From: Candidatus Bathyarchaeota archaeon
GTDB taxonomy: Archaea; Thermoproteota; Bathyarchaeia; Hecatellales; Hecatellaceae
Assembly (NCBI GenBank): GCA_052246995.1
Contig: JBQPWD010000001.1
Coordinates: 245,574-309,573 of the forward strand
Direction of reading: 5' to 3'
Length of the DNA stretch: 64,000 bases
The translations under genes were made by a program, and so were the position numbers. Shown piece by piece: positions 1,043 to 64,000 of the stretch. The notes under the pieces were generated by a model. That model was not told where the DNA came from. It saw only the letters and a list, made by a program, of their open reading frames with translations, and did no database searches. Within the stretch, counting starts at the first letter, position 1, and each line of letters begins with the position of its first letter.

Positions 1043-1825
1043 TTAAATTCCTTTAACCGCTTCAGGATTTGCTCCTGCAAGCGTTCTTAACCAATGAATC
1101 CTGTGGACAAGACCCATTACTTCGCTGTCAGTCTTCATTGAAACACCGTCAGCACGGAATTGTACAGTCATTTCTCTCAGCATACTTTCTGGAAGCGGCT
1201 TACCAATGGGTATAGGTTTATCTAATGGATTTCCAACCTGTGACTTCACATAAACCACGTTACCTGTTGCTTCATCGTATATGTAACGTCTTTGCATATC
1301 AAACATTAAGCCGTGTTCATCAAGTCTTAATGCATGTCCGTGAACAGTAGCTCCTCTCACACCGACTCTAGCAGGGTCGAAGAATTCGGTTTCAATAAGG
1401 TCTTTGCTAATTAGCTCAACGTCACGTTCCCTACCTTCTAATGGTGTTCGCCCTGATAAGGAACCTGGGTCTACTCCGCGGTAACGTGAATGATATATCC
1501 AACACCTTATAACTGGTGCTAAGGGGGCAAAGTATACAGAATCAGTAAACTGAATATATCTGATTCTATCCCCAGCTTTGGCACCTGGTGTTGGCTTAAC
1601 AATCTTCCTTACTGGGCATGGGGGTTCACCCATTTCATCAAGCGGTGGATGAACAGTTTTATAGGCTTCACCTGGAGCACGATGGTCTAACAGTCTAATA
1701 AGGTCTTCGTCGCTTATTGAACGAAGCTTTCTTAAGCTGTAGTTTGGATCTAGGTATTTACGTCTATTTTGTGCTGGCTTGCTTAAACCTGGATAATACT
1801 GGGGTTTGTATTCTGGTTTTGCCAT
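1043..1825 (-). CDS. mcrG: Methyl-coenzyme M reductase gamma subunit
   Basis: Motifs PQYYPG, HRAPGEAYKTVHPPLDEM, GAKAGDRIRYIQFTDS, LSGR, RGATVHGHALRLDE. Confidence 0.98.
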   Translation of the reverse strand: MAKPEYKPQYYPGLSKPAQNRRKYLDPNYSLRKLRSISDEDLIRLLDHRAPGEAYKTVHPPLDEMGEPPCPVRKIVKPTPGAKAGDRIRYIQFTDSVYFAPLAPVIRCWIYHSRYRGVDPGSLSGRTPLEGRERDVELISKDLIETEFFDPARVGVRGATVHGHALRLDEHGLMFDMQRRYIYDEATGNVVYVKSQVGNPLDKPIPIGKPLPESMLREMTVQFRADGVSMKTDSEVMGLVHRIHWLRTLAGANPEAVKGI

Positions 1826-3160
1826 TTAAACCACCCCCTTAATTTTACTTGCAGCTTCAGCAACATATTTTATTGGTTCCCTCAACTCAGGAATTTCGCT
1901 AAGAACTTCACCAACCACACCACTAGCTCTTACCGGGTCGTAGTACACGGTTCCGGCATCCAAAGCTACAGCTGCTGCAACACAAGGTATGCAAAAGCCT
2001 TTGCTGTGCCTAGTAACTATATGGTTTCCATGGAAAACTCCAGGATTGCCTCCACCATAGATTGAGTGGCTGAAGAATGACATTTCAATACCTGTACCTT
2101 CTACCTTTCCAAAATCCACACCTGGAAGTCCAGTTTCATGTTCGATCAAATCGTTAAAGTATACAAGAACGGATGTAACATGTTGCATAGCTCTTGCGGC
2201 ACCACAAGTTACCATGGTGCCTGCTAGTAAACCTGAAGCCGCGTACGCATTCCACTTTGGAAGGTCATCGGTTGTGTAAAGAATGAAACCTGAAGGTAGC
2301 TTAGAGAGGGCTCTAATTACCCCATCCTCGTAAGCCTTTTTAGCCGTAGACCTTACCACATCACCTAGTGTTCCATTTTCACCATTTTCTTTGACAAGTG
2401 TGTATGTAAGGTTGTTTGCGTTTAAACCTTGATAGGCAAGACCTAATAGGTGAAGTCTCTCAAATGGTCCTATTGCGTCACCCATTTCGTACATGGCTGT
2501 TTGCTCAAGGATTGCGGCTAGTGCAGCTGCGTTCATAGCATTTTTTCTTGTTATTATGGCTATATGGTAGCAGGGGATGTTTCGTAAGGCATACCCCATA
2601 CCCTCATTTTGCTGGGGTACTGCCAAAAGTGATGCTATATAGCTACCCATCGGATCCATCGTCTGGGGATATCTTCCCCATACCGCTGCATGAATCATGT
2701 CGTAATTCCATATGTCCACATTAAAAGTTTCGATAAGGGTCCAGCATAAAGCAGAAGCAACACTGGTGAAACCAGTGGTATATTCCACACCAGCATCAAT
2801 TCTGGCAGTAGGTGCCATTACAAGCAGATATTCACCATTTCTGAGAATTTTAACTTCAGTATCATCATCTGGCTTAACACGAAGATATTTTGTCAACTTG
2901 TCGGCAATAGCGTTTGCATTTTTAACAATATCAAGTTTTAATTCTCGTCCACGAATGATACAACCCTCACCACCAACAGCCCCTCGCGCTAAACCTCTTT
3001 CAAGACCTGCTAGGTTTACTGCAACTGCACGTTTAAGCGTAGAAACTATTTTTTTAATAGCGGGATTGAATATCGGACTGACAGCCTCTACAGGAATGTT
3101 CTTATCAACAAGCTTTCCAGAATCGTCGTAGAGATCTATCTTATCTGGATACTTGGGCAT
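1826..3160 (-). CDS. mcrB: Methyl-coenzyme M reductase beta subunit
   Basis: Motifs [62 protein letters not shown]. Confidence 0.98.
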   Translation of the reverse strand: [444 protein letters not shown]

Positions 3161-3213
3161 GCTCCCACCCGTTTACAAGCTTAGTTTACGTCAAGTATTT
3201 TTTTATGGATTTT

Positions 3214-3230
3214 ACTTTTATATTTTTCCA
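3214..3230 (-). promoter_or_regulatory. Putative BRE-TATA promoter of mcrBGA
   Basis: Minus strand reads GGAAAAATATAAAAGT about 55 nt upstream of the mcrB ATG; SD-like GGGTGGGAG directly before the ATG. Confidence 0.45.
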
Positions 3231-3446
3231 TTTTTTGAGTAGCTTAACTTGGGTAGAACTTAATTTTTTCTATATTTTTAGAGGAGAATACTAAACCATG
3301 AAATCACGATTAAAAATCTGATTTTTAAAATAAAAACGGAAACGTAAACACCAAAACTTCTTTCCGGATCCTAAAAATTAAAAAACATTTTAGCAATAAG
3401 TAGTACTCCCTAGCCAGTAAGGTCTCCATTTACAACTTACCTACGT

Positions 3447-3944
3447 TTACCATGTCTCTTCTATTTTCATGATTAACCGTTCTAATGCTTTTTCTAATGC
3501 TTCTTTTTCAGGTTTTATGATTACCACTGGAATATCCACTATCTTACCAAGTAAAGGTGCTAGAATAGGAGCACATATAATACCTGCAGCACCACTTTTT
3601 TCAGCTTTAACGGCGGAAGTAATACATTCATCTATAGAATCGCAGGGGTACTCTCTCACCTTATAAGTTTTTCCTTTAATCTTCACCTCTTTAATGCCTA
3701 ACTCATCAAGTAAAAACTTAGCTGCAATAATTGCAATAAAAGAGCGATCTTCAAACTCTAAAGCCTTTAATATTTTTCCAACAGTGGAAATTTGAGGGTC
3801 TCTTTTTCCAGATAAAACCTTGTAAAGGGTGGAAAGTGGTATTTTTGCTTTTTCTGACAACTCCCTAACACTCATCCCCCTACGTTCAAGCTCCTCTTTT
3901 ACCGCTTTTTCCAAACCTAATTTAAATATTTTTTCGGCTAACAT
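3447..3944 (-). CDS. XRE/Cro-type HTH transcriptional regulator with a methanogen-type C-terminal domain
   Basis: N-terminal HTH (SVRELSEKAKIPLSTLYKVLSGKRDP); C-terminal AVKAEKSGAAGIICAPI. Confidence 0.8.
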   Translation of the reverse strand: MLAEKIFKLGLEKAVKEELERRGMSVRELSEKAKIPLSTLYKVLSGKRDPQISTVGKILKALEFEDRSFIAIIAAKFLLDELGIKEVKIKGKTYKVREYPCDSIDECITSAVKAEKSGAAGIICAPILAPLLGKIVDIPVVIIKPEKEALEKALERLIMKIEETW

Positions 3945-4073
3945 TAATGGTACTATTGTGCAATTTATGTTATAAATATTTTCCTTTAGAGGTAAACCAA
4001 GATAACTTAAAAGGAAAACTTTTATTCCAGGACCCTAAATATTCCTTAACCTGCACATTAAGGGGAAGCTGGC

Positions 4074-56682: not shown

Positions 56683-58641
56683 ATGAAAGTAAAAAAAGAC
56701 GAATACTACTTAGAGGAAGTTTCTAAAAAACCTTTGCTAAAGGAGGTTATATTAGAAAACTTTATGAGTTATGAGTATGCACGTATCCCCCTTAAGCCAG
56801 GGTTAAACATAATATGCGGTCCCAACGGTTCAGGTAAATCTTCACTTCTCGTAGCCCTATCCGTAGTTCTAGGTCAGACATATACTGAAAGATCCAAGAA
56901 GTTAAGCGACTTAGTACGTTGGGGCGAGAAACAGGCAAGGATAACCCTCGTTTTTGATAATTCTAAGGTTAATGGTAGACGACCAATAAAAGGAAGCAAC
57001 TCGGATTTATTCCTAGTTTCAAAGATTCTTAGAACAGACGGCTTTTACTGGTACGAGGTTGACTATCATGAGGTAAATAAGGCTGAGATTGTAAAAACCT
57101 TCTCAAGTTTAGGAATAAATCCAAGTAACATGCTTATAATTATGCACCAAAATATGATTGAAGAATTTAGCTTTACACCTCCAAATAAAAAGCTTGTAAT
57201 GGTTGAAGAAGCTGTAGGTTTTCAAATGTATCGGCAAAGAGTTCTGGAAGCTCATGAAAGACTTAACAAGATTCTTAGTGAAGAATCTGAGGTTTTAAGG
57301 CTTTTATCAAACGCTGAGCAAACCCTAAAATATTGGAAAGAACAATATAGTCTTCTTATCAAGAAGAGAGAGCTTCTCGAAAGAAAAAACTATCTGAATG
57401 CTGAGGTTGTATGGTCTTATGTTTTTAAGGTTCAAAATGAACTTCAAAGATTAAATAATTCTCTTAAAGACAAGAAAGATGAAGTAGAAAAAATTGAAAA
57501 TAGTATTAAGGAAGTTAAAGACAAAATTGAAGAGAAAATTGTCAATATAGCTAAGCTTAAAGATGAAAGAAAAAATCTTTTCTATAAAATCCTTGGGTTA
57601 GAGAAAAAGGAAGGTCGAATAGAAGCTTACTTAAAGTTTAAAGAATTCTTAAACAGGCTTGGAGACGTAAATTCGGGATTTCTTCCAAAATTTCAAAAAT
57701 TTCTTTTAGAATTTGAAGATGAATACAAAAGAATCACTGGTGAATTTGATGATGTTAAAAAAATTAAGGATAACCTGCTTCAGAAGATTAGTAAATTAGA
57801 TGAAGAAATGGATATTCGTCAGAGAGAAATTTTACACAACAAAATTAAGGAAGCCACTTTAGATTTCCAAAAAAATATTTTAGAGAAAGAAATTAAAAAA
57901 TTGAGTTTGGACATTTCTCAGCTTGAAAAAGAGTTTCAGCAATACTTTATTAAAGCTGATAGTTTAGGGTTGAAGGTTGAAACAAAGCGTACTCCGCAGG
58001 AAGTAAGTGAAGATTTAAAAATTGTAAATTTGCAGCTTGAACCTTTAAAGGACATCCCTGATGAAGCTGAATTAATGTTTGAAAAATATTTTAAGGTTTT
58101 TGAAGAACTTAAAGAGAAATCTGTAATTGTTGCTGAAAATAAGCGTAGAATGTTAGCTGAGGTTGAAGTTAGAAAGCAAACATGGAAAACCGTTATAATT
58201 CGATTTCTTGAAGATTTAAATAAAAGCTTTAACGTAACTCTTCAAAGTATAGGTGCTACTGGCAGTATAAAGCTTGTGGAGGATGAAGATATAGAGTCCG
58301 CAGGGCTAGAGATAAGTGTAGGCTTCTCTGGTGCCTCTCCAAAGGTTTTAGATGCGTATACTCAAAGTGGTGGAGAGAGAAGTACTATTGTTATGGCGTT
58401 TCTTCTTTCACTTCAAAAATATGTTAAATCTCCTATTAGGGCGGTTGATGAATTTGAAGTTCACATGGACCCGCGAAATCGTGAAGTAGTTTCCAAGCTT
58501 ATAGCTTCAACAGTAAAATCTCAGAAAAATATGCAGTATATTGTAATAACGCCAGGACTTTTACCGATTTTTGATGAAGATGTAAACATAATTGTTGTTC
58601 AAAATGTTGGTGGAAAATCAAACATTAAACTTCTAGTTTGA
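56683..58641 (+). CDS. Short SMC-family ATPase (Smc5/6- or coalescin-like)
   Basis: LENFMSY, GPNGSGKSS, coiled coils, QSGGERS, PIRAVDEFEVHMDP.N. Confidence 0.88.
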   Translation: MKVKKDEYYLEEVSKKPLLKEVILENFMSYEYARIPLKPGLNIICGPNGSGKSSLLVALSVVLGQTYTERSKKLSDLVRWGEKQARITLVFDNSKVNGRRPIKGSNSDLFLVSKILRTDGFYWYEVDYHEVNKAEIVKTFSSLGINPSNMLIIMHQNMIEEFSFTPPNKKLVMVEEAVGFQMYRQRVLEAHERLNKILSEESEVLRLLSNAEQTLKYWKEQYSLLIKKRELLERKNYLNAEVVWSYVFKVQNELQRLNNSLKDKKDEVEKIENSIKEVKDKIEEKIVNIAKLKDERKNLFYKILGLEKKEGRIEAYLKFKEFLNRLGDVNSGFLPKFQKFLLEFEDEYKRITGEFDDVKKIKDNLLQKISKLDEEMDIRQREILHNKIKEATLDFQKNILEKEIKKLSLDISQLEKEFQQYFIKADSLGLKVETKRTPQEVSEDLKIVNLQLEPLKDIPDEAELMFEKYFKVFEELKEKSVIVAENKRRMLAEVEVRKQTWKTVIIRFLEDLNKSFNVTLQSIGATGSIKLVEDEDIESAGLEISVGFSGASPKVLDAYTQSGGERSTIVMAFLLSLQKYVKSPIRAVDEFEVHMDPRNREVVSKLIASTVKSQKNMQYIVITPGLLPIFDEDVNIIVVQNVGGKSNIKLLV

Positions 58642-58650
58642 GGTTAAAAA

Positions 58651-59442
58651 ATGAGTAAAAAAAGCGAAAACAGTAGAGAACTTCTTTTAAGAGTTATTAA
58701 CTTATGTAAAACAGTTAATGAGAAAACTCTAGATCCATTTGAGGTTGAAGTTTGTGAAATATTGGAAACTCTTAGAAGTTTGCTTGACAAGTACAAATCT
58801 TTTGAAGATTATTGTTTAGATGCTGAAGCAATAAACGACTTATCAAAAGTTGTTAAGCTTCAAGAAGAATGGTTAAAGCATAAATCTAAGCCTCACCTGG
58901 ACATTGAAACCGTTAAATCAAAAATACGTAGTATTGAAACAAAAAGATTAGCCGAAATTTTTCTAGAATCTTGGAATCCTATTGTTACTATTAAAATTCT
59001 TCCCACCAAAAAATTAGAAGAAGCTTTAAAATACTGGAAAAATCTCATACCTCGAAAACTTGAGATGAAAAAGCTTGATCTTCAAACTCCAGCTCAAGTG
59101 GAAGTTATACCGTGGGGTGAAGTTGAAAATCAAAAACTTATACTTAAGAGAGAGTTTGAAAAAATTTTAAATGATTTATGGCAGCTTCTTAAGAGTAAAG
59201 TTAAGAATGGTAAAGTTTCCTACTGGGACTTTGTATATTCAAATACTTATGATGAATTTATCATGAAGGCGTATTTAACAAGCTTTCTCATCAGCTATGG
59301 TTATGCTGACCTTAGTGTAGATCCGCTAAAAAATGAAATTTTTTTGTTTCCAAAAAATGAGCCTAAAAAAAGTGGTAATGTTTACTCGTTTATAATACCT
59401 ATAAGTTACGAAAAATGGATAGCTTTAAAGAAGGTTATTTAA
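58651..59442 (+). CDS. Putative kleisin (ScpA-like) partner of the SMC
   Basis: N-terminal LDPFEVEV..IL resembles the ScpA DPW.I.I motif; C-terminal winged-helix-like segment; directly downstream of the SMC. Confidence 0.55.
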   Translation: MSKKSENSRELLLRVINLCKTVNEKTLDPFEVEVCEILETLRSLLDKYKSFEDYCLDAEAINDLSKVVKLQEEWLKHKSKPHLDIETVKSKIRSIETKRLAEIFLESWNPIVTIKILPTKKLEEALKYWKNLIPRKLEMKKLDLQTPAQVEVIPWGEVENQKLILKREFEKILNDLWQLLKSKVKNGKVSYWDFVYSNTYDEFIMKAYLTSFLISYGYADLSVDPLKNEIFLFPKNEPKKSGNVYSFIIPISYEKWIALKKVI

Positions 59443-59443
59443 A

Positions 59444-59998
59444 TTGGGTAGAAGAATGGTTAAAGATTTTTACAAGTATAGCCTAAAAAAGCTTGTTAGA
59501 ATACTCTTACTTCAGAAGCATAAAATTCCTGGTGTTAAAGGTTCAGAGCTAAAAAGGATCTTTGGAAAAGATTACCCTAAACTTTTAATGGTCTTGGACG
59601 ACGAAGTTAAAAAGCTGGGATTGAAGGTTAAAGTTTTTTCTGGTGATGCTTTTAAAAAAAGTTTAAACGAAATTTCTGATGAGGATTGGGTTCTTCTAAC
59701 ACTAGAAGAAGGCGAATTCGAAGAGTGGCCCAATACATCTGGTTGGAGGGTTGATGATTTGGCAATTCTAGCTGCAACAATAGTTTATCTTAACTCAAAA
59801 GGTGGAGCGGCATCAAGAAGTGAGATTGAAAAATTTTTAGCTGAAAAATTTTCTGTTTGGAGAATAAGATTTAATTTAGAGAAGTTTATAAGGTTAGGTT
59901 ATCTTAGTGAAGATGAAAATAATGTGCTTAGAATTGGTTGGCGGACAAAAGCTGAAGTTGACGAAAAACATTTGATGAAGCTTTTAACCTCAAGTTAA
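59444..59998 (+). CDS. Putative kite (Nse1/ScpB-like tandem winged-helix) protein
   Basis: 184 aa; LEKFIRLGYL.....LRIGWRTKAEVD; third gene of the SMC operon. Confidence 0.5.
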   Translation: MGRRMVKDFYKYSLKKLVRILLLQKHKIPGVKGSELKRIFGKDYPKLLMVLDDEVKKLGLKVKVFSGDAFKKSLNEISDEDWVLLTLEEGEFEEWPNTSGWRVDDLAILAATIVYLNSKGGAASRSEIEKFLAEKFSVWRIRFNLEKFIRLGYLSEDENNVLRIGWRTKAEVDEKHLMKLLTSS

Positions 59999-60264
59999 CT
60001 TTTAGCTTTTCTCCATTCAAAGCAAACCTTAACAACTTGAATAGCCCAAACATCTTTATTCTCTTCTAAATTTAATCTAACTTCTGAAATTTTATCTTCA
60101 CTTTCAGCTTCAATTCTAGCTAGGATATCAAATGCCCCATAAACTTCGTAAACTTCTTTAACGTTTATTTCCTTGTAGCTCTTAAGTTTTCTTATCACCT
60201 CTTGGTCTGTTCCAGCCTTAACTGTTACAATAAAAAAAGCTTCTACCATTTTTACACCATTCAA
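59995..60264 (-). CDS. Stand-alone Lrp/AsnC ligand-binding (RAM) domain protein
   Basis: AFFIV.V..G, VYEVYGAFDILARIE. Confidence 0.85.
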   Translation of the reverse strand: MNGVKMVEAFFIVTVKAGTDQEVIRKLKSYKEINVKEVYEVYGAFDILARIEAESEDKISEVRLNLEENKDVWAIQVVKVCFEWRKAKS

Positions 60265-60506
60265 CTTGTAAGGTATTTCTCGATAACAATCATAGTTATT
60301 GAAGATCTTACATTTTCAAGTTTTCTTATTTTAAAATCTACTGTTTCTTTTATTTCTTCAAGTGAGCCTGTTTCAATTTTAACCATAATGTCATAGATGC
60401 CGTAAAGCCCGTAAACTTCTTTAACCTTATCGAAGGTTTTTAACTTTTCTATAACTTTTTCTTCGCTTCCAGGTTGAACATTTATTAATACAAATGCTAT
60501 GGTCAA
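60261..60506 (-). CDS. Stand-alone Lrp/AsnC ligand-binding (RAM) domain protein
   Basis: AFVLINV.PG.E, VYGLYGIYDIMVKIE, IRKLENVRSSITMIV. Confidence 0.9.
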   Translation of the reverse strand: MTIAFVLINVQPGSEEKVIEKLKTFDKVKEVYGLYGIYDIMVKIETGSLEEIKETVDFKIRKLENVRSSITMIVIEKYLTS

Positions 60507-60626
60507 CTTTTACTTCCTCTAACCAATTTAACTATATAACTTATAATTCGGTTTAGAACTATTTTAAAGTTATAGTTAAGCTTAAGCACTAGAAGTAGCT
60601 TAAAAACAACTTAAAGGGACAAATTT

Positions 60627-62918
60627 ATGTCAAAGAAGAAGGTAAGAGCAAGCGCAGAAATCTTCGATGCTGTTTCAGCACCAACGAGAATTCAAACTTT
60701 AAAGCTTATTGCTGCGAAAGGCCCTTTAACCTATAGCGAAATAATGGAGATGTTAAACTTTGAGCCTACAAGGGATGCTGGGAAATTCGTATATCATCTT
60801 AAAAACCTTATAAAGGCAGGTTTAATCACCTTTGAAAAACCTATTAAAAAGTACAAAATAACCGACCTAGGATTGATGGTTATCAGATTTTCAAAGGATC
60901 TTGAAGAGTATGCTCTTAAAAAGTCTGGTAAAATGCTTGTTAGGACTTCTAGATACACTATAGAGGAATTTGACAGAAATAAGATAGTCTCAGTTCTTGT
61001 TGAAGAAGCTGGTTTATCCCAAGATGTTGCTGAGAAAGTTTCTTTAGAAGTTGAAGAGAGACTTTTTAAATTGCCAGTAAAGTATCTTACAGCTCCATTA
61101 ATTAGGGAATTTGTAAACGCTATTCTCCTGGAAAGCGACCTTGAAGAGTATAGACATAGGTTAACAAGACTTGGTATGCCGCCTTATGATGTGAAAAGAA
61201 CAATTGAAGATACTTCCAAGAAGCTTTTAGGTGCAGATTTTGTGAGATTAAAAGCAGGCGATAGAGTTATAACCGAATACATGCTTCTTAACAGCTTACC
61301 GAGAAACGTGGCCGATGCTCATCTTTCAGGTCAAATTCATATATCAAATTCAAATTCATGGATTTTAACTCCTTTCACCGTTTACCATGATTTAAGGATA
61401 TTTTTGTCGGGAAAGTTTAGAGCCTTAGATTTCTTGAACCCATACAAACAGTTTCTACTTACTCAACCAAAAACACTTACTGAGGCAGTCAGCGTAACAA
61501 CCGAAATGTTAAGATTTTTTGAGTACGAAGTTTCGGGAGAACAAGGAATAGATTATTTTAATGTGTTTCTTTCACCTTATGCTGCCAAAAAATCAGTAGA
61601 GGATATCAAGAAAATTTTAAAAGTTTTACTTTTAGAGTTAAGCAATACTGGATTAAAATCTTTTAGCGGAGTAAGTTTAGGCCTAGAAGTGGCAATTCCA
61701 CGTCATCTTAAAAATTTACCAGCAATTGGTTTTGAAGGTTCTACACAACCTACTTATGGTGATTATGAGGATGAAGCACAAAAAATTTTAGACCTTCTTC
61801 TTGATGTTTTTCTTGAAATATGTGAAAAAAAGCCGCTATTTAATCCCCACCTTATCTTAAAAATTAGACCTAACTGTTTAGGGTCTAAATATGATGATGT
61901 TTTAGAAAAGGCTCATAAAATTGCTGCTAATTATGGCTTACTCCACATAGCTAATCTTGTTAGAGAACAAGACGAATTTTCAAGCTACCTTGCGGATGGT
62001 GAAAAAGTCAATGCAGATTGGAAAACAGATTGGGAAATTGACACTCTAAGAGTTTGCTGCCTTAACAGTATTTCAATAAATCTTCCACGGATAGCCTACG
62101 AGGCAAGAAGAGACGATGACGAGTTTTTCGACGGTATTGAAAAGGTTATTCAGCTTACAGGTGAAGTTTTAAGTGTTAAAATGAGGGAGATTACCAAAAG
62201 GTTTAGGGAGAATGCTCTTCCAAATTTCTCAAGTATGGTAGATGGCGAAACATATGGTAGGTTGGACAACTTCTTCGGCTCAATTAATATCGTAGGCTTA
62301 GCTGAAGCTGTCAAATTTCATCTTGGATACGATATATATGAAGACCTTATGCCCCAAAACTTTGCATTAGAACTAATGGAACATTTAGTTAGCAAAGTTA
62401 ATACAACATCTAAGAAGCTTAACTTAAGAATTTATGTTTCTCAAATCCCAGATGCTGAAGCATCTCAAAAAATGGCTGAACAGGATACCAAGCTTTACGG
62501 TTTCTCTGATGTTAATGTGCAAGGAGATTCTGAGAGTCCATATTATACATTTGATTCTATAATTCCTGACAATGTAAAAATCTCATTAGATGACAGGCTT
62601 AGGTTGGAAGAGAAATTTTATCCAATTTTTAATGGAGGACGCTTCATTAAAATCCCGCTTGTAGGCGAATGTTCAAGCGAAGAACTTCTTAAGAAGACTA
62701 AGGAAGTTTGTGGAGGATATAATATCGGATTTTACGTTTATGATAGTGTTATATCATATTGTGGATATTGTAAAAAAGCGTTTAAGGAGTTTAAACAGAA
62801 ATGTCCAGTTTGCGGCCTAACAGGTATCATCACTTATGCAAGGGAATCCACAGTACATCTTCCACTGGAGTGGTGGTCTCACAAAGGACGTAAAAACGCC
62901 ATAAAGAAGCTTGAATAA
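60627..62918 (+). CDS. ArsR-type HTH / ATP-cone / NrdD-like fusion, apparently catalytically inactive
   Basis: N-terminal HTH (SAPTRIQTL...GKFVYHL); VRTS...FDRNKI ATP cone; DAHLSGQIHI, SINLPRIAYE, CGYC...CPVC; no MGCR or R-x-TGY motif. Confidence 0.85.
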   Translation: MSKKKVRASAEIFDAVSAPTRIQTLKLIAAKGPLTYSEIMEMLNFEPTRDAGKFVYHLKNLIKAGLITFEKPIKKYKITDLGLMVIRFSKDLEEYALKKSGKMLVRTSRYTIEEFDRNKIVSVLVEEAGLSQDVAEKVSLEVEERLFKLPVKYLTAPLIREFVNAILLESDLEEYRHRLTRLGMPPYDVKRTIEDTSKKLLGADFVRLKAGDRVITEYMLLNSLPRNVADAHLSGQIHISNSNSWILTPFTVYHDLRIFLSGKFRALDFLNPYKQFLLTQPKTLTEAVSVTTEMLRFFEYEVSGEQGIDYFNVFLSPYAAKKSVEDIKKILKVLLLELSNTGLKSFSGVSLGLEVAIPRHLKNLPAIGFEGSTQPTYGDYEDEAQKILDLLLDVFLEICEKKPLFNPHLILKIRPNCLGSKYDDVLEKAHKIAANYGLLHIANLVREQDEFSSYLADGEKVNADWKTDWEIDTLRVCCLNSISINLPRIAYEARRDDDEFFDGIEKVIQLTGEVLSVKMREITKRFRENALPNFSSMVDGETYGRLDNFFGSINIVGLAEAVKFHLGYDIYEDLMPQNFALELMEHLVSKVNTTSKKLNLRIYVSQIPDAEASQKMAEQDTKLYGFSDVNVQGDSESPYYTFDSIIPDNVKISLDDRLRLEEKFYPIFNGGRFIKIPLVGECSSEELLKKTKEVCGGYNIGFYVYDSVISYCGYCKKAFKEFKQKCPVCGLTGIITYARESTVHLPLEWWSHKGRKNAIKKLE

Positions 62919-63074
62919 CTCGTTTTTATCTTAAATTTGAGGAGTTAAGAGGTCTTTAACTACATTTTTTTCTACATTTTTGTAGAAAAGATTAAATATT
63001 CCGTAGTAGCCTATTTTCTCACTTGCAAGAAACCACGCCGACAACCCAATCATCTAACTTCTAGGTTGATTAGA

Positions 63075-64000
63075 ATGAAAACTTTTCATCATTTGTTAAC
63101 GGAAAAAGTCAATCTAACTCCTAATGCTTTAAAAGTCTTGGAGAAAAGATATTTAAAAAAAGATGAGAATGGCCGCGTTGTTGAAACCCCTCAACAAATG
63201 TTTTTAAGGGTTGCTTTAACAGTAGCTTCAGCTGACAAATACTATGGAAAAACAAATGATGAAGTTGAGAAGACTATTGAAGATTTTTACAACCTTATGG
63301 TTAACCTTGAGTTTCTGCCTAACTCCCCAACATTGATGAATGCTGGGAGAGAGCTTGGACAACTTTCAGCATGCTTTGTTCTCCCAGTTGAAGACTCAAT
63401 TGAGAGCATTTTTGAAACTATTAAGCATGCGGCTTTGATTCATAAATCTGGTGGTGGTACCGGTTTCTCGTTTTCAAGGCTTAGACCTAAAGGAGATGTT
63501 GTAAAATCAACTAAGGGAGTTTCAAGTGGACCTGTATCTTTTATGATGGTTTATGATGCGGCAACGGAAGCTATTAAGCAGGGTGGAACAAGACGTGGCG
63601 CCAACATGGGTATTTTAAGTGTTTACCATCCAGACATTTTAGAGTTTATAACTTGTAAGCTTGATGGTAAACGGTTAAACAATTTTAACATTTCTGTTGC
63701 TGTTGACGACAAGTTTATGGAGGCTGTTGAGAAGGGTGAAGATTACCCACTAATCAATCCTAGAAACAATGAGCGTGTTGGTACGCTTAACGCAAGAAAA
63801 GTTTTTGACCTTATAGCTGAAACGGCATGGAAAATAGGTGATCCCGGTCTAATCTTTCTCGATAAAATTAACCAAGATAATCCCACACCTCACCTAGGAG
63901 CTATTGAAAGTACTAATCCTTGTGGTGAGCAGCCTTTACTTCCATATGAATCTTGTAACTTGGGTTCAATAAATCTTGCAAAAATGGTTGAAAATGGAGA
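63075..64000 (+). CDS. nrdJ: Class II (adenosylcobalamin-dependent) ribonucleotide reductase, 5' part (truncated by the window edge)
   Basis: Manual translation: [65 protein letters not shown]. Confidence 0.95.

Follow-up and report, generated by a model that had tools for sequence, protein, structure and literature searches.

A 64,000-nucleotide stretch of the genome of a Candidatus Bathyarchaeota archaeon (the window; contig JBQPWD010000001.1, forward-strand positions 245,574 to 309,573) contains, near its end, a gene encoding a 763-residue protein, P0001. This protein joins a winged helix-turn-helix (wHTH) and an ATP-cone to the barrel of a class III ribonucleotide reductase (RNR), NrdD, that has lost its catalytic residues. 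We consider it more likely than not that P0001 is a transcription factor that senses nucleotides and regulates RNR genes in the manner of NrdR; its probable target is the adjacent class II RNR gene, nrdJ. An original prediction, made from the sequence letters, had proposed such a regulator built on a dead RNR. The sequence observation holds, and the interpretation is supported in part, by architecture, lost chemistry, selective constraint, adjacency to RNR genes and the lack of an NrdR; the substrate-site motifs prove degraded as well.

Domain architecture and fold of P0001

The gene and the parts of its product are as follows.

60627..62918, forward strand: gene for P0001 (wHTH, ATP-cone and dead NrdD), ATG start, 763 amino acids
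60654..60887, forward strand: winged helix-turn-helix, ArsR-like, Pfam DUF7347, residues 10-87
60933..61151, forward strand: ATP-cone of the divergent 'VRTS' type, PF03477, residues 103-175
61245..62822, forward strand: ten-stranded barrel of NrdD type, residues 207-732, devoid of radical and substrate-phosphate residues
62760..62813, forward strand: Zn(Cys)4 ribbon, retained, C712/C715/C726/C729
62832..62864, forward strand: degenerate glycyl-radical loop 'TYARESTVHLP', T742 where the Gly is expected

The reading frame is a single one of 763 codons without an internal stop, and Pfam recovers the ATP-cone and NrdD barrel originally read from it, with a winged helix (DUF7347) where an ArsR-type helix-turn-helix had been read. 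DUF7347 scores 30.7 bits (cut-off 27.6), while the ArsR-type model HTH_5 lies slightly under its cut-off (20.9 bits against 22) and the NCBIfam model NF033788 reaches 26.3 bits against a cut-off of 55. The ATP-cone scores 27.1 bits (cut-off 25.8) and the NRDD barrel (PF13597) is matched at E 9.9e-63. All eight NCBIfam NrdD models remain under cut-off for P0001: TIGR02487 scores highest, with 243.6 bits for a cut-off of 326.35, and the other seven fall far short of theirs.

Structure prediction with AlphaFold2 from an alignment of 50 family sequences yields a confident model, with a mean predicted local distance difference test (pLDDT) of 88.4 and a predicted template modelling (pTM) score of 0.78. 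Foldseek, run with this model against the PDB, ranks NrdD structures highest (T. maritima, S. thermophilus, P. copri and phage T4), at E ~1e-23 to 1e-15 and a template modelling score, normalised to the target, of ~0.73. By phmmer, the N-terminal ~100 residues match an ArsR in the PDB at a marginal E of 0.054, aligning 'GKFVYHLKNLIKAGLI' on 'GISFHLKNLQHAGLV', and the recognition-helix signature 'xHLKxLxxAGL' is common to the wHTH of P0001 and ArsR. Across 50 Bathyarchaeia family members, wHTH positions G52, Y56, H57, Y76 and G82 are invariant, and the recognition helix and wing are among the best-conserved positions of the alignment. In the ATP-cone, V105, R106, F115, I120, E127, I159 and R160 are invariant in the family alignments. 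The VRTS hairpin of the cone is shared with the genuine NrdDs encoded next door in relatives' loci.

Loss of the radical and substrate residues

Catalytic positions were read from a MAFFT alignment of 102 full-length representatives of 50%-identity clusters, including seven genuine NrdDs that have in common a beta-A Cys, a finger-loop '(G/C)CR' and 'SR(I/V)(T/C)GY'. None of the three elements survives in P0001, as originally claimed for every radical-chemistry residue. At the glycyl-radical loop, 'ITYARESTVHLPLEW' of P0001 is aligned to 'DEYMRIVGYLVPVSA' of T. maritima NrdD, which places the radical Gly at T742; the region reads 'YARESTVH'. In strand beta-A, P0001 has 'TPFTVYHDLR' against 'RP.xC..HDLR' in its genuine relatives, and no Cys occurs within residues 247-257.

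The thiyl-radical Cys sits at the finger loop's tip, in MGCR or MCCR (available part of PMC9669993). The finger loop of P0001 reads 'SSYLADGEKV'. When S. thermophilus NrdD is aligned to the family profile, the consensus 't-g-e-r' falls on 'M-G-C-R', and the equivalent residues of P0001 are D457-G458-E459-K460. The thiyl Cys position is therefore E459, with G458 conserved. A first MAFFT register, which placed the thiyl Cys at D457, is overruled by this profile alignment, and neither register puts a Cys there. The prediction that SYLADG had replaced YMGCR is thus right as to the missing Cys and corrected as to the register.

The substrate site is degraded too. Of the HxHD triphosphate motif and NxN flap defined for P. 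copri NrdD (available part of PMC11226230), the first reads H238-I-S-N241 in P0001; the second has N at both columns (253 and 255) in six of seven genuine reference rows and is a gap and K198 in P0001. The substrate-bridging Glu is replaced by A610. The Zn site is intact, as had been noted: ligands C712, C715, C726 and C729 are all present, and in the 50-sequence alignment these four are the only invariant Cys residues. Taken together, the alignments support the conclusion that P0001 is incapable of glycyl-radical chemistry.

A family of wHTH-bearing NrdD homologues

A word-indexed search returned 901 matches at E <= 1e-3 among 7,999 scored candidates. Among the 120 matches listed, lengths run from 724 to 780 residues, 93-100% of P0001 is covered, and most carry DUF7347, ATP-cone and NRDD; those with a name are called 'anaerobic ribonucleoside-triphosphate reductase' and come from metagenome-assembled genomes of Bathyarchaeia or Hecatellales. 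When the 50%-identity representatives were searched exhaustively, 1,903 matches came out at E <= 1e-3 and 356 at <= 1e-30.

Residues were counted in 439 pooled proteins of 560-830 residues, drawn from search matches and loci; these are redundant and related, so that the counts are descriptive and do not represent independent events. A hidden Markov model of the N-terminal 95 residues identifies 399 of them as HTH-bearing. All three radical residues occur together in none of the 399, compared with 26 of the 40 proteins without the HTH. Among the HTH-bearing proteins, any Cys in the beta-A window is found in 10, a Cys at the finger-loop tip in 54 and R..G[YFWHM] in the tail in 4; the Gly tail is missing altogether from 164, and all four Zn Cys are kept by 383. 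No position of the finger loop varies more than its tip (I 82, V 64, C 54, L 39, F 28, E 26, T 26 and further residues).

These counts bear on the possibility that P0001 is a residual enzyme, with relocated residues, another radical source or non-radical nucleotide chemistry, whose HTH is autoregulatory (a 'trigger enzyme'). The motifs NLPR, GLxE, D620, Y640 and GG670-671 are indeed shared between P0001 and genuine NrdDs, and a minority of the family has the loop-tip Cys (54/399) or a tail Gly. We nevertheless regard this explanation as very improbable. Cys, Cys and Gly are never found together, no invariant Cys exists beyond the Zn ligands, and within the finger loop variation is greatest at the thiyl Cys equivalent. 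The HxHD and NxN substrate motifs are lost, no activase is present, and 164 of 399 proteins lack the Gly tail.

In a FastTree phylogeny of 112 sequences, 81 HTH-bearing proteins and one N-terminally short protein form a single clade apart from genuine NrdDs. The closest genuine relatives of P0001 are Bathyarchaeia NrdDs with a VRTS-type cone, which carry a second ATP-cone at the position of the wHTH. Ten further NrdD-like proteins without a wHTH match (P0218, P0236, P0244, P0248, P0186, P0206, P0188, P0221, P0240 and P0242) have no finger-loop Cys, and most are also missing the Zn ribbon and the Gly tail; the four Zn Cys remain in P0188 and P0242, P0242 additionally has the tail Gly, and P0218, P0236, P0244 and P0248 have two ATP-cones each by Pfam. 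Such wHTH-less groups nest among genuine NrdDs, so the chemistry seems to have disappeared repeatedly.

The phylum was sampled with 301 genomes, and 187 of them carry a match at E <= 1e-30. Within this sample, all 43 genomes of one taxonomic family are positive, the family that holds the ammonia-oxidiser-type matches, and other families have no match (for example 0/20 and 0/13 genomes). A short form ending just past the Zn ribbon (P0191, 700 residues) occurs in Nitrosotenuis, Nitrososphaera and other ammonia oxidisers, and databases name it 'anaerobic RNR' or 'ArsR family transcriptional regulator'. Ammonia oxidisers are aerobes and the class III glycyl-radical RNR is oxygen-sensitive; a class III enzyme would therefore make no sense there.

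RNR complement of the genome

The assembly (1.53 Mb, 17 contigs) is rated 100% complete. P0001 is encoded by its only NRDD-family gene; a weak second NRDD match on contig C10 was considered as an NrdD and proved to be a TackOD1 zinc-ribbon protein. No nrdG lies next to the P0001 gene, as originally noted, and the search extends this to the whole genome, where none of 20 matches to TIGR02495 reaches the NrdG cut-off (the best gives 68.7 bits against 131.15). These 20 matches are taken to be other radical S-adenosylmethionine proteins. ATP-cones occur in two proteins only, P0001 and the RNR on contig C2; with both accounted for, NrdR is not found in the genome.

Two RNR genes of class II type are present, the copy that follows the regulator gene and a paralogue on contig C2.

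63066..64000, forward strand: 5' part of nrdJ, class II B12-dependent RNR with NPCGEQ, without ATP-cone, cut by the contig end

The open reading frame (ORF) begins at 63066, and the likely start codon of nrdJ is the ATG at 63075. Only the first 311 codons lie in the window, where contig C1 ends. The next gene had been predicted to be an intact class II RNR: the class and the NPCGEQ motif hold, and 'intact' is undemonstrable because the contig ends inside the gene. The orthologue at locus L017, of the same genus, is open over 752 residues. The C2 paralogue (1398-3971) is 75% identical to the regulator-linked nrdJ and bears an ATP-cone; the copy beside the regulator is thus the cone-less one. 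The end of contig C5 carries the 3' end of nrdJ, near-identical in sequence to that of the C2 paralogue. The assembly break at nrdJ is probably due to a repeat.

Selection and expression

The ratio of nonsynonymous to synonymous substitution rates (dN/dS) was calculated for P0001 against its orthologue in L017, to which it is 87% identical. It is 0.096 overall, and by part 0.057 for the wHTH, 0.025 for the ATP-cone (the lowest), 0.107 for the barrel and 0.144 for the Zn ribbon and tail; the neighbouring nrdJ fragment gives 0.059. The P0001 gene is under purifying selection and is not a pseudogene.

Metatranscriptome contigs from one run (X5) overlie parts of the regulator gene, the spacer (62855-63103) and nrdJ, and give a weak hint of expression only, since contigs from an RNA library may include DNA, say nothing of level, ends or strand, and give no meaning to the parts left uncovered.

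The constraint also speaks to a second alternative, in which P0001 is a non-transcriptional pseudoenzyme that modulates RNR or buffers nucleotides through protein contacts, the wHTH being a protein-interaction or unspecific nucleic-acid module. Dead enzyme paralogues often regulate active relatives, the dimer-forming barrel is conserved, and the finger-loop Cys is kept by 7 of the 25 regulators that have a second NrdD-family gene downstream. Weighing more heavily, P0001 is strongly constrained in a genome that has no NrdD partner for it, the partner would have to alternate between enzymes of class II and of class III, and the recognition helix and wing of the wHTH are among the best-conserved positions. 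We therefore judge a purely protein-level role improbable.

Gene neighbourhood

In ammonia oxidisers, a class II RNR gene lies downstream of the regulator on the same strand at 24 of 24 loci, and in the four of these with ORFs listed nrdJ starts ~175-215 bp past the regulator. Locus counts for the rest derive from the best 80 of 548 relatives found by a scan of species-representative genomes, nearly all of them Bathyarchaeia. At 29 of these 80 loci either nrdD or nrdJ is downstream. A second NrdD-family gene follows directly on the same strand at 25; 19 of these genes are full length with SR[VI][TV]GY, and so genuine, and the other 6 run off the edge of the locus. At 14 Bathyarchaeia loci, regulator and nrdD are separated by a small gene for a CxxC redoxin. 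The class II gene nrdJ is downstream at 4 of the 80 (L017, L018, L019 and L066), as well as in the window and at G021/L122. The predicted synteny with nrdJ accordingly holds for the window's lineage and the ammonia oxidisers, and is confined to them; the majority of Bathyarchaeia loci show nrdD, or else no RNR gene, at this place. The regulator's link to working RNR genes thus spans two classes and three lineages, for which nrdD tandem duplication cannot by itself account.

Genuine NrdDs with the Cys-rich finger loop 'GVSCYQCCAYCF' are encoded downstream at L031, L045, L058, L062 and L067, and likewise at L077, L079, L083, L088 and L094; the small CxxC redoxin gene (cluster 3) is ahead of them. 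At loci L021-L096, pyrB lies beyond the regulator or the regulator-nrdD pair, in convergent orientation at 37 of 80 loci and followed by pyrI at 25 of 80, which looks like a nucleotide-metabolism neighbourhood.

A third alternative takes up these surroundings: P0001 would be a transcription factor whose regulon is not centred on RNR and might cover pyrimidine or nucleotide metabolism, replication or the cell cycle, with RNR adjacency left as a relic of nrdD tandem duplication. The convergent pyrB just downstream (37/80), the pyrI that follows it (25/80) and the 51 of 80 loci at which no downstream RNR gene was found all suit it, and a tandem duplicate would indeed begin its existence beside nrdD. 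It fails to account for nrdJ, of another RNR class, which adjoins the regulator in the window's lineage and at all 24 loci of ammonia oxidisers, an arrangement that duplication of nrdD does not explain. A convergent pyrB shares no promoter with the regulator, and the conserved element described below sits at the promoter of the RNR operon. We hold this alternative to be unlikely, and prefer P0001 as a regulator of RNR genes.

Upstream of the regulator, two small ORFs on the reverse strand (59995-60264 and 60261-60506; 89 and 81 residues) encode only the RAM domain of Lrp/AsnC (PF01037). The pair is divergent from the regulator gene, and a like-sized pair occurs in the same position and orientation in L017 and L018. 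Farther upstream, 56683-59998 on the forward strand holds a short SMC_N-family ATPase of 652 residues (PF02463, E 9e-36), followed by two ORFs of 263 and 184 residues without a Pfam match. ORFs of 652, 263 and 184 residues are present at the corresponding place in L017, a comparison made by length only.

Promoter elements

Three elements were located in the two promoter regions.

60557..60577, unstranded: AACTAT-N9-ATAGTT, an inverted repeat within the promoter region of the regulator itself, weak candidate for an autoregulatory site
60598..60607, forward strand: TATA-like box GCTTAAAAAC, ~25 nt before the ATG, promoter assignment inferred
62958..63000, unstranded: conserved nrdJ-promoter block, a candidate operator, reading AACTACATTTTTTTCTACATTTTTGTAGAAAAGATTAAATATT

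The nrdJ-promoter block contains two direct CTACA boxes, 12 bp apart (62960-62964 and 62972-62976), and an inverted TGTAG (62981-62985). Within it lies a 22-bp perfect 9-4-9 palindrome, TTTTCTACATTTTTGTAGAAAA (62968-62989), that ends 2 nt ahead of a TATA-like TTAAATAT (62992-62999). The 43-nt block differs by one base in L017, where the flanks are divergent, and L018 and L019 retain a similar layout (ATACA..TATAC/G..TTTTTTGTCA and a TATA). The composite pattern has two matches in the 1.53-Mb genome, the nrdJ promoter and a site of different sequence at C4 187598. A looser direct-repeat pattern has 57 matches genome-wide, mostly intragenic.

For other loci, 27 regions preceding the downstream RNR operon were given to a Gibbs sampler, which settled on TTTATACAGAATTTTATAC(C/A)A just 5' of the TATA-like box. 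A position weight matrix (PWM) was trained on 12 loci of one clade, and test loci were compared with 478 control upstream regions. Five independent nrdD-type loci reach an empirical p <= 0.004 (L048, L059, L069, L070 and L072), and three more give p 0.006 (L021, L082 and L089).

At the regulator's own promoter, L017 has AACTAC-N9-ACAGTT in place of AACTAT-N9-ATAGTT. ACTACA stands beside a T-rich TATA-like run upstream of the regulator at several Bathyarchaeia loci, and only 11% of 80 regulator-upstream regions score above the 95th percentile of controls. Autoregulation is a possibility. Given the TATA-like box assigned here, the regulator mRNA would be leaderless or near-leaderless.

Proposed mechanism

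P0001 would have arisen from a duplicated class III RNR catalytic subunit in which the radical machinery and the substrate-phosphate motifs decayed, the fold, Zn ribbon and ATP-cone were retained, and an ArsR-like winged helix was added N-terminally. By analogy with solved NrdD dimers, it may dimerise through the barrel. The winged helices would then bind repeated (C/A)TACA boxes that abut the B recognition element (BRE) and TATA box of RNR promoters, here that of nrdJ at 62958-63000, and the regulator may bind its own promoter as well. Binding of ATP or dATP at the cone would change the conformation or oligomeric state and thereby alter DNA binding, so that RNR transcription would be coupled to the pool of deoxyribonucleoside triphosphates (dNTPs) and ATP. 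In this scheme the dead barrel would act as the scaffold of the dimer and as a relay. Since the palindrome ends so close to the TATA-like box, we lean to repression as the sign of regulation, which is a guess.

A bolder version would have the whole RNR allosteric apparatus turned into a transcriptional sensor. The a-site of the ATP-cone and the specificity site at the dimer interface would together read ATP/dATP and the balance of the four dNTPs, making the protein the master regulator of dNTP supply across much of Thermoproteota, the ammonia oxidisers, abundant worldwide, included. We regard this extension as doubtful. The original prediction had also invoked RNR specificity sites, for which the analysis gives no support; the sequence alignments to P. 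copri NrdD stop short of the specificity site.

Several observations weigh against P0001 as a nucleotide-sensing regulator of nrdJ. The ATP-cone is divergent: its Pfam score barely passes the cut-off, the canonical KR-DG hairpin is VRTSR, and the cone segment alone, compared with PDB sequences, matches no RNR or NrdR. The finger-loop Cys persists in 54 of 399 HTH-bearing proteins ('ATGCR'), without the Gly or the beta-A Cys, and the stem of the HTH-bearing clade has weak support (0.40). No RNR gene was found downstream at 51 of 80 loci, 12 of which have <1 kb of downstream sequence. Pattern searches of the genome found no second target, none lying before the C2 RNR, and the nrdJ-promoter palindrome was not found in the regulator's own promoter, where the geometry differs (AACTAT-N9-ATAGTT against CTACA-N4-TGTAG). 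At L122, which belongs to another genus and encodes a regulator with 48.5% identity, TA(T/C)A boxes and T-runs are seen, and CTACA is lacking. The T-runs of the nrdJ block may simply terminate transcription of the regulator gene, acting as archaeal terminator signals. Finally, the PWM gives p 0.027 for L017, 0.079 for L019, 0.13 for the window and 0.31 for L018, so that the nrdJ-type lineage is not significant; the case for the window's CTACA boxes therefore comes from conservation among close relatives only.

Implications

Control of RNR transcription in archaea is largely unknown, and the family would fill that gap if the proposal is true. It would also represent an undescribed route to a regulator, an RNR catalytic subunit stripped of its chemistry. 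No description of the family was found in the literature searched, which took in papers on RNR phylogeny, RNRdb, insertion analysis, NrdD and NrdR and excluded subscription journals. The names in use confirm the earlier suspicion that such proteins are mislabelled: NCBI and JGI annotation as 'anaerobic ribonucleoside-triphosphate reductase' affects the family, and as a result a class III RNR is wrongly credited to aerobes and to this genome. Such naming distorts inferences of oxygen tolerance from metagenomes. In cultured ammonia oxidisers the hypothesis is directly testable.

Comparison with known systems

P0001 resembles NrdR in combining a DNA-binding domain with an ATP-cone, in the position of its gene beside RNR genes of several classes, and in the repeated boxes at RNR promoters. 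It differs in having an ArsR-like winged helix in place of an N-terminal Zn ribbon and a whole dead RNR barrel of ~560 residues; homology is confined to the cone, and NrdR boxes bear no relation to the candidate boxes. Archaea seldom have an NrdR, according to the available part of PMC9110341.

With class III NrdD, P0001 shares a homologous barrel, the Zn ribbon and an N-terminal ATP-cone. The Gly and both the thiyl and the beta-A Cys are missing from it, as are HxHD, the NxN flap and the activase, and it carries a wHTH where the closest genuine NrdDs bear a second ATP-cone. By descent, P0001 is an NrdD in which each feature that marks a catalytic member is missing.

The ArsR/SmtB regulators (ArsR, PDB 6j05; P. 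horikoshii PH1932, PDB 1uly) are similar in their helix-turn-helix and wing, at marginal scores, whereas in P0001 the sensor would be the cone and barrel. Enzyme folds also act as the ligand-sensing part of DNA-binding proteins in BirA, PutA and NadR, most of which are still catalytic; in P0001, by contrast, catalytic activity appears to have been lost.

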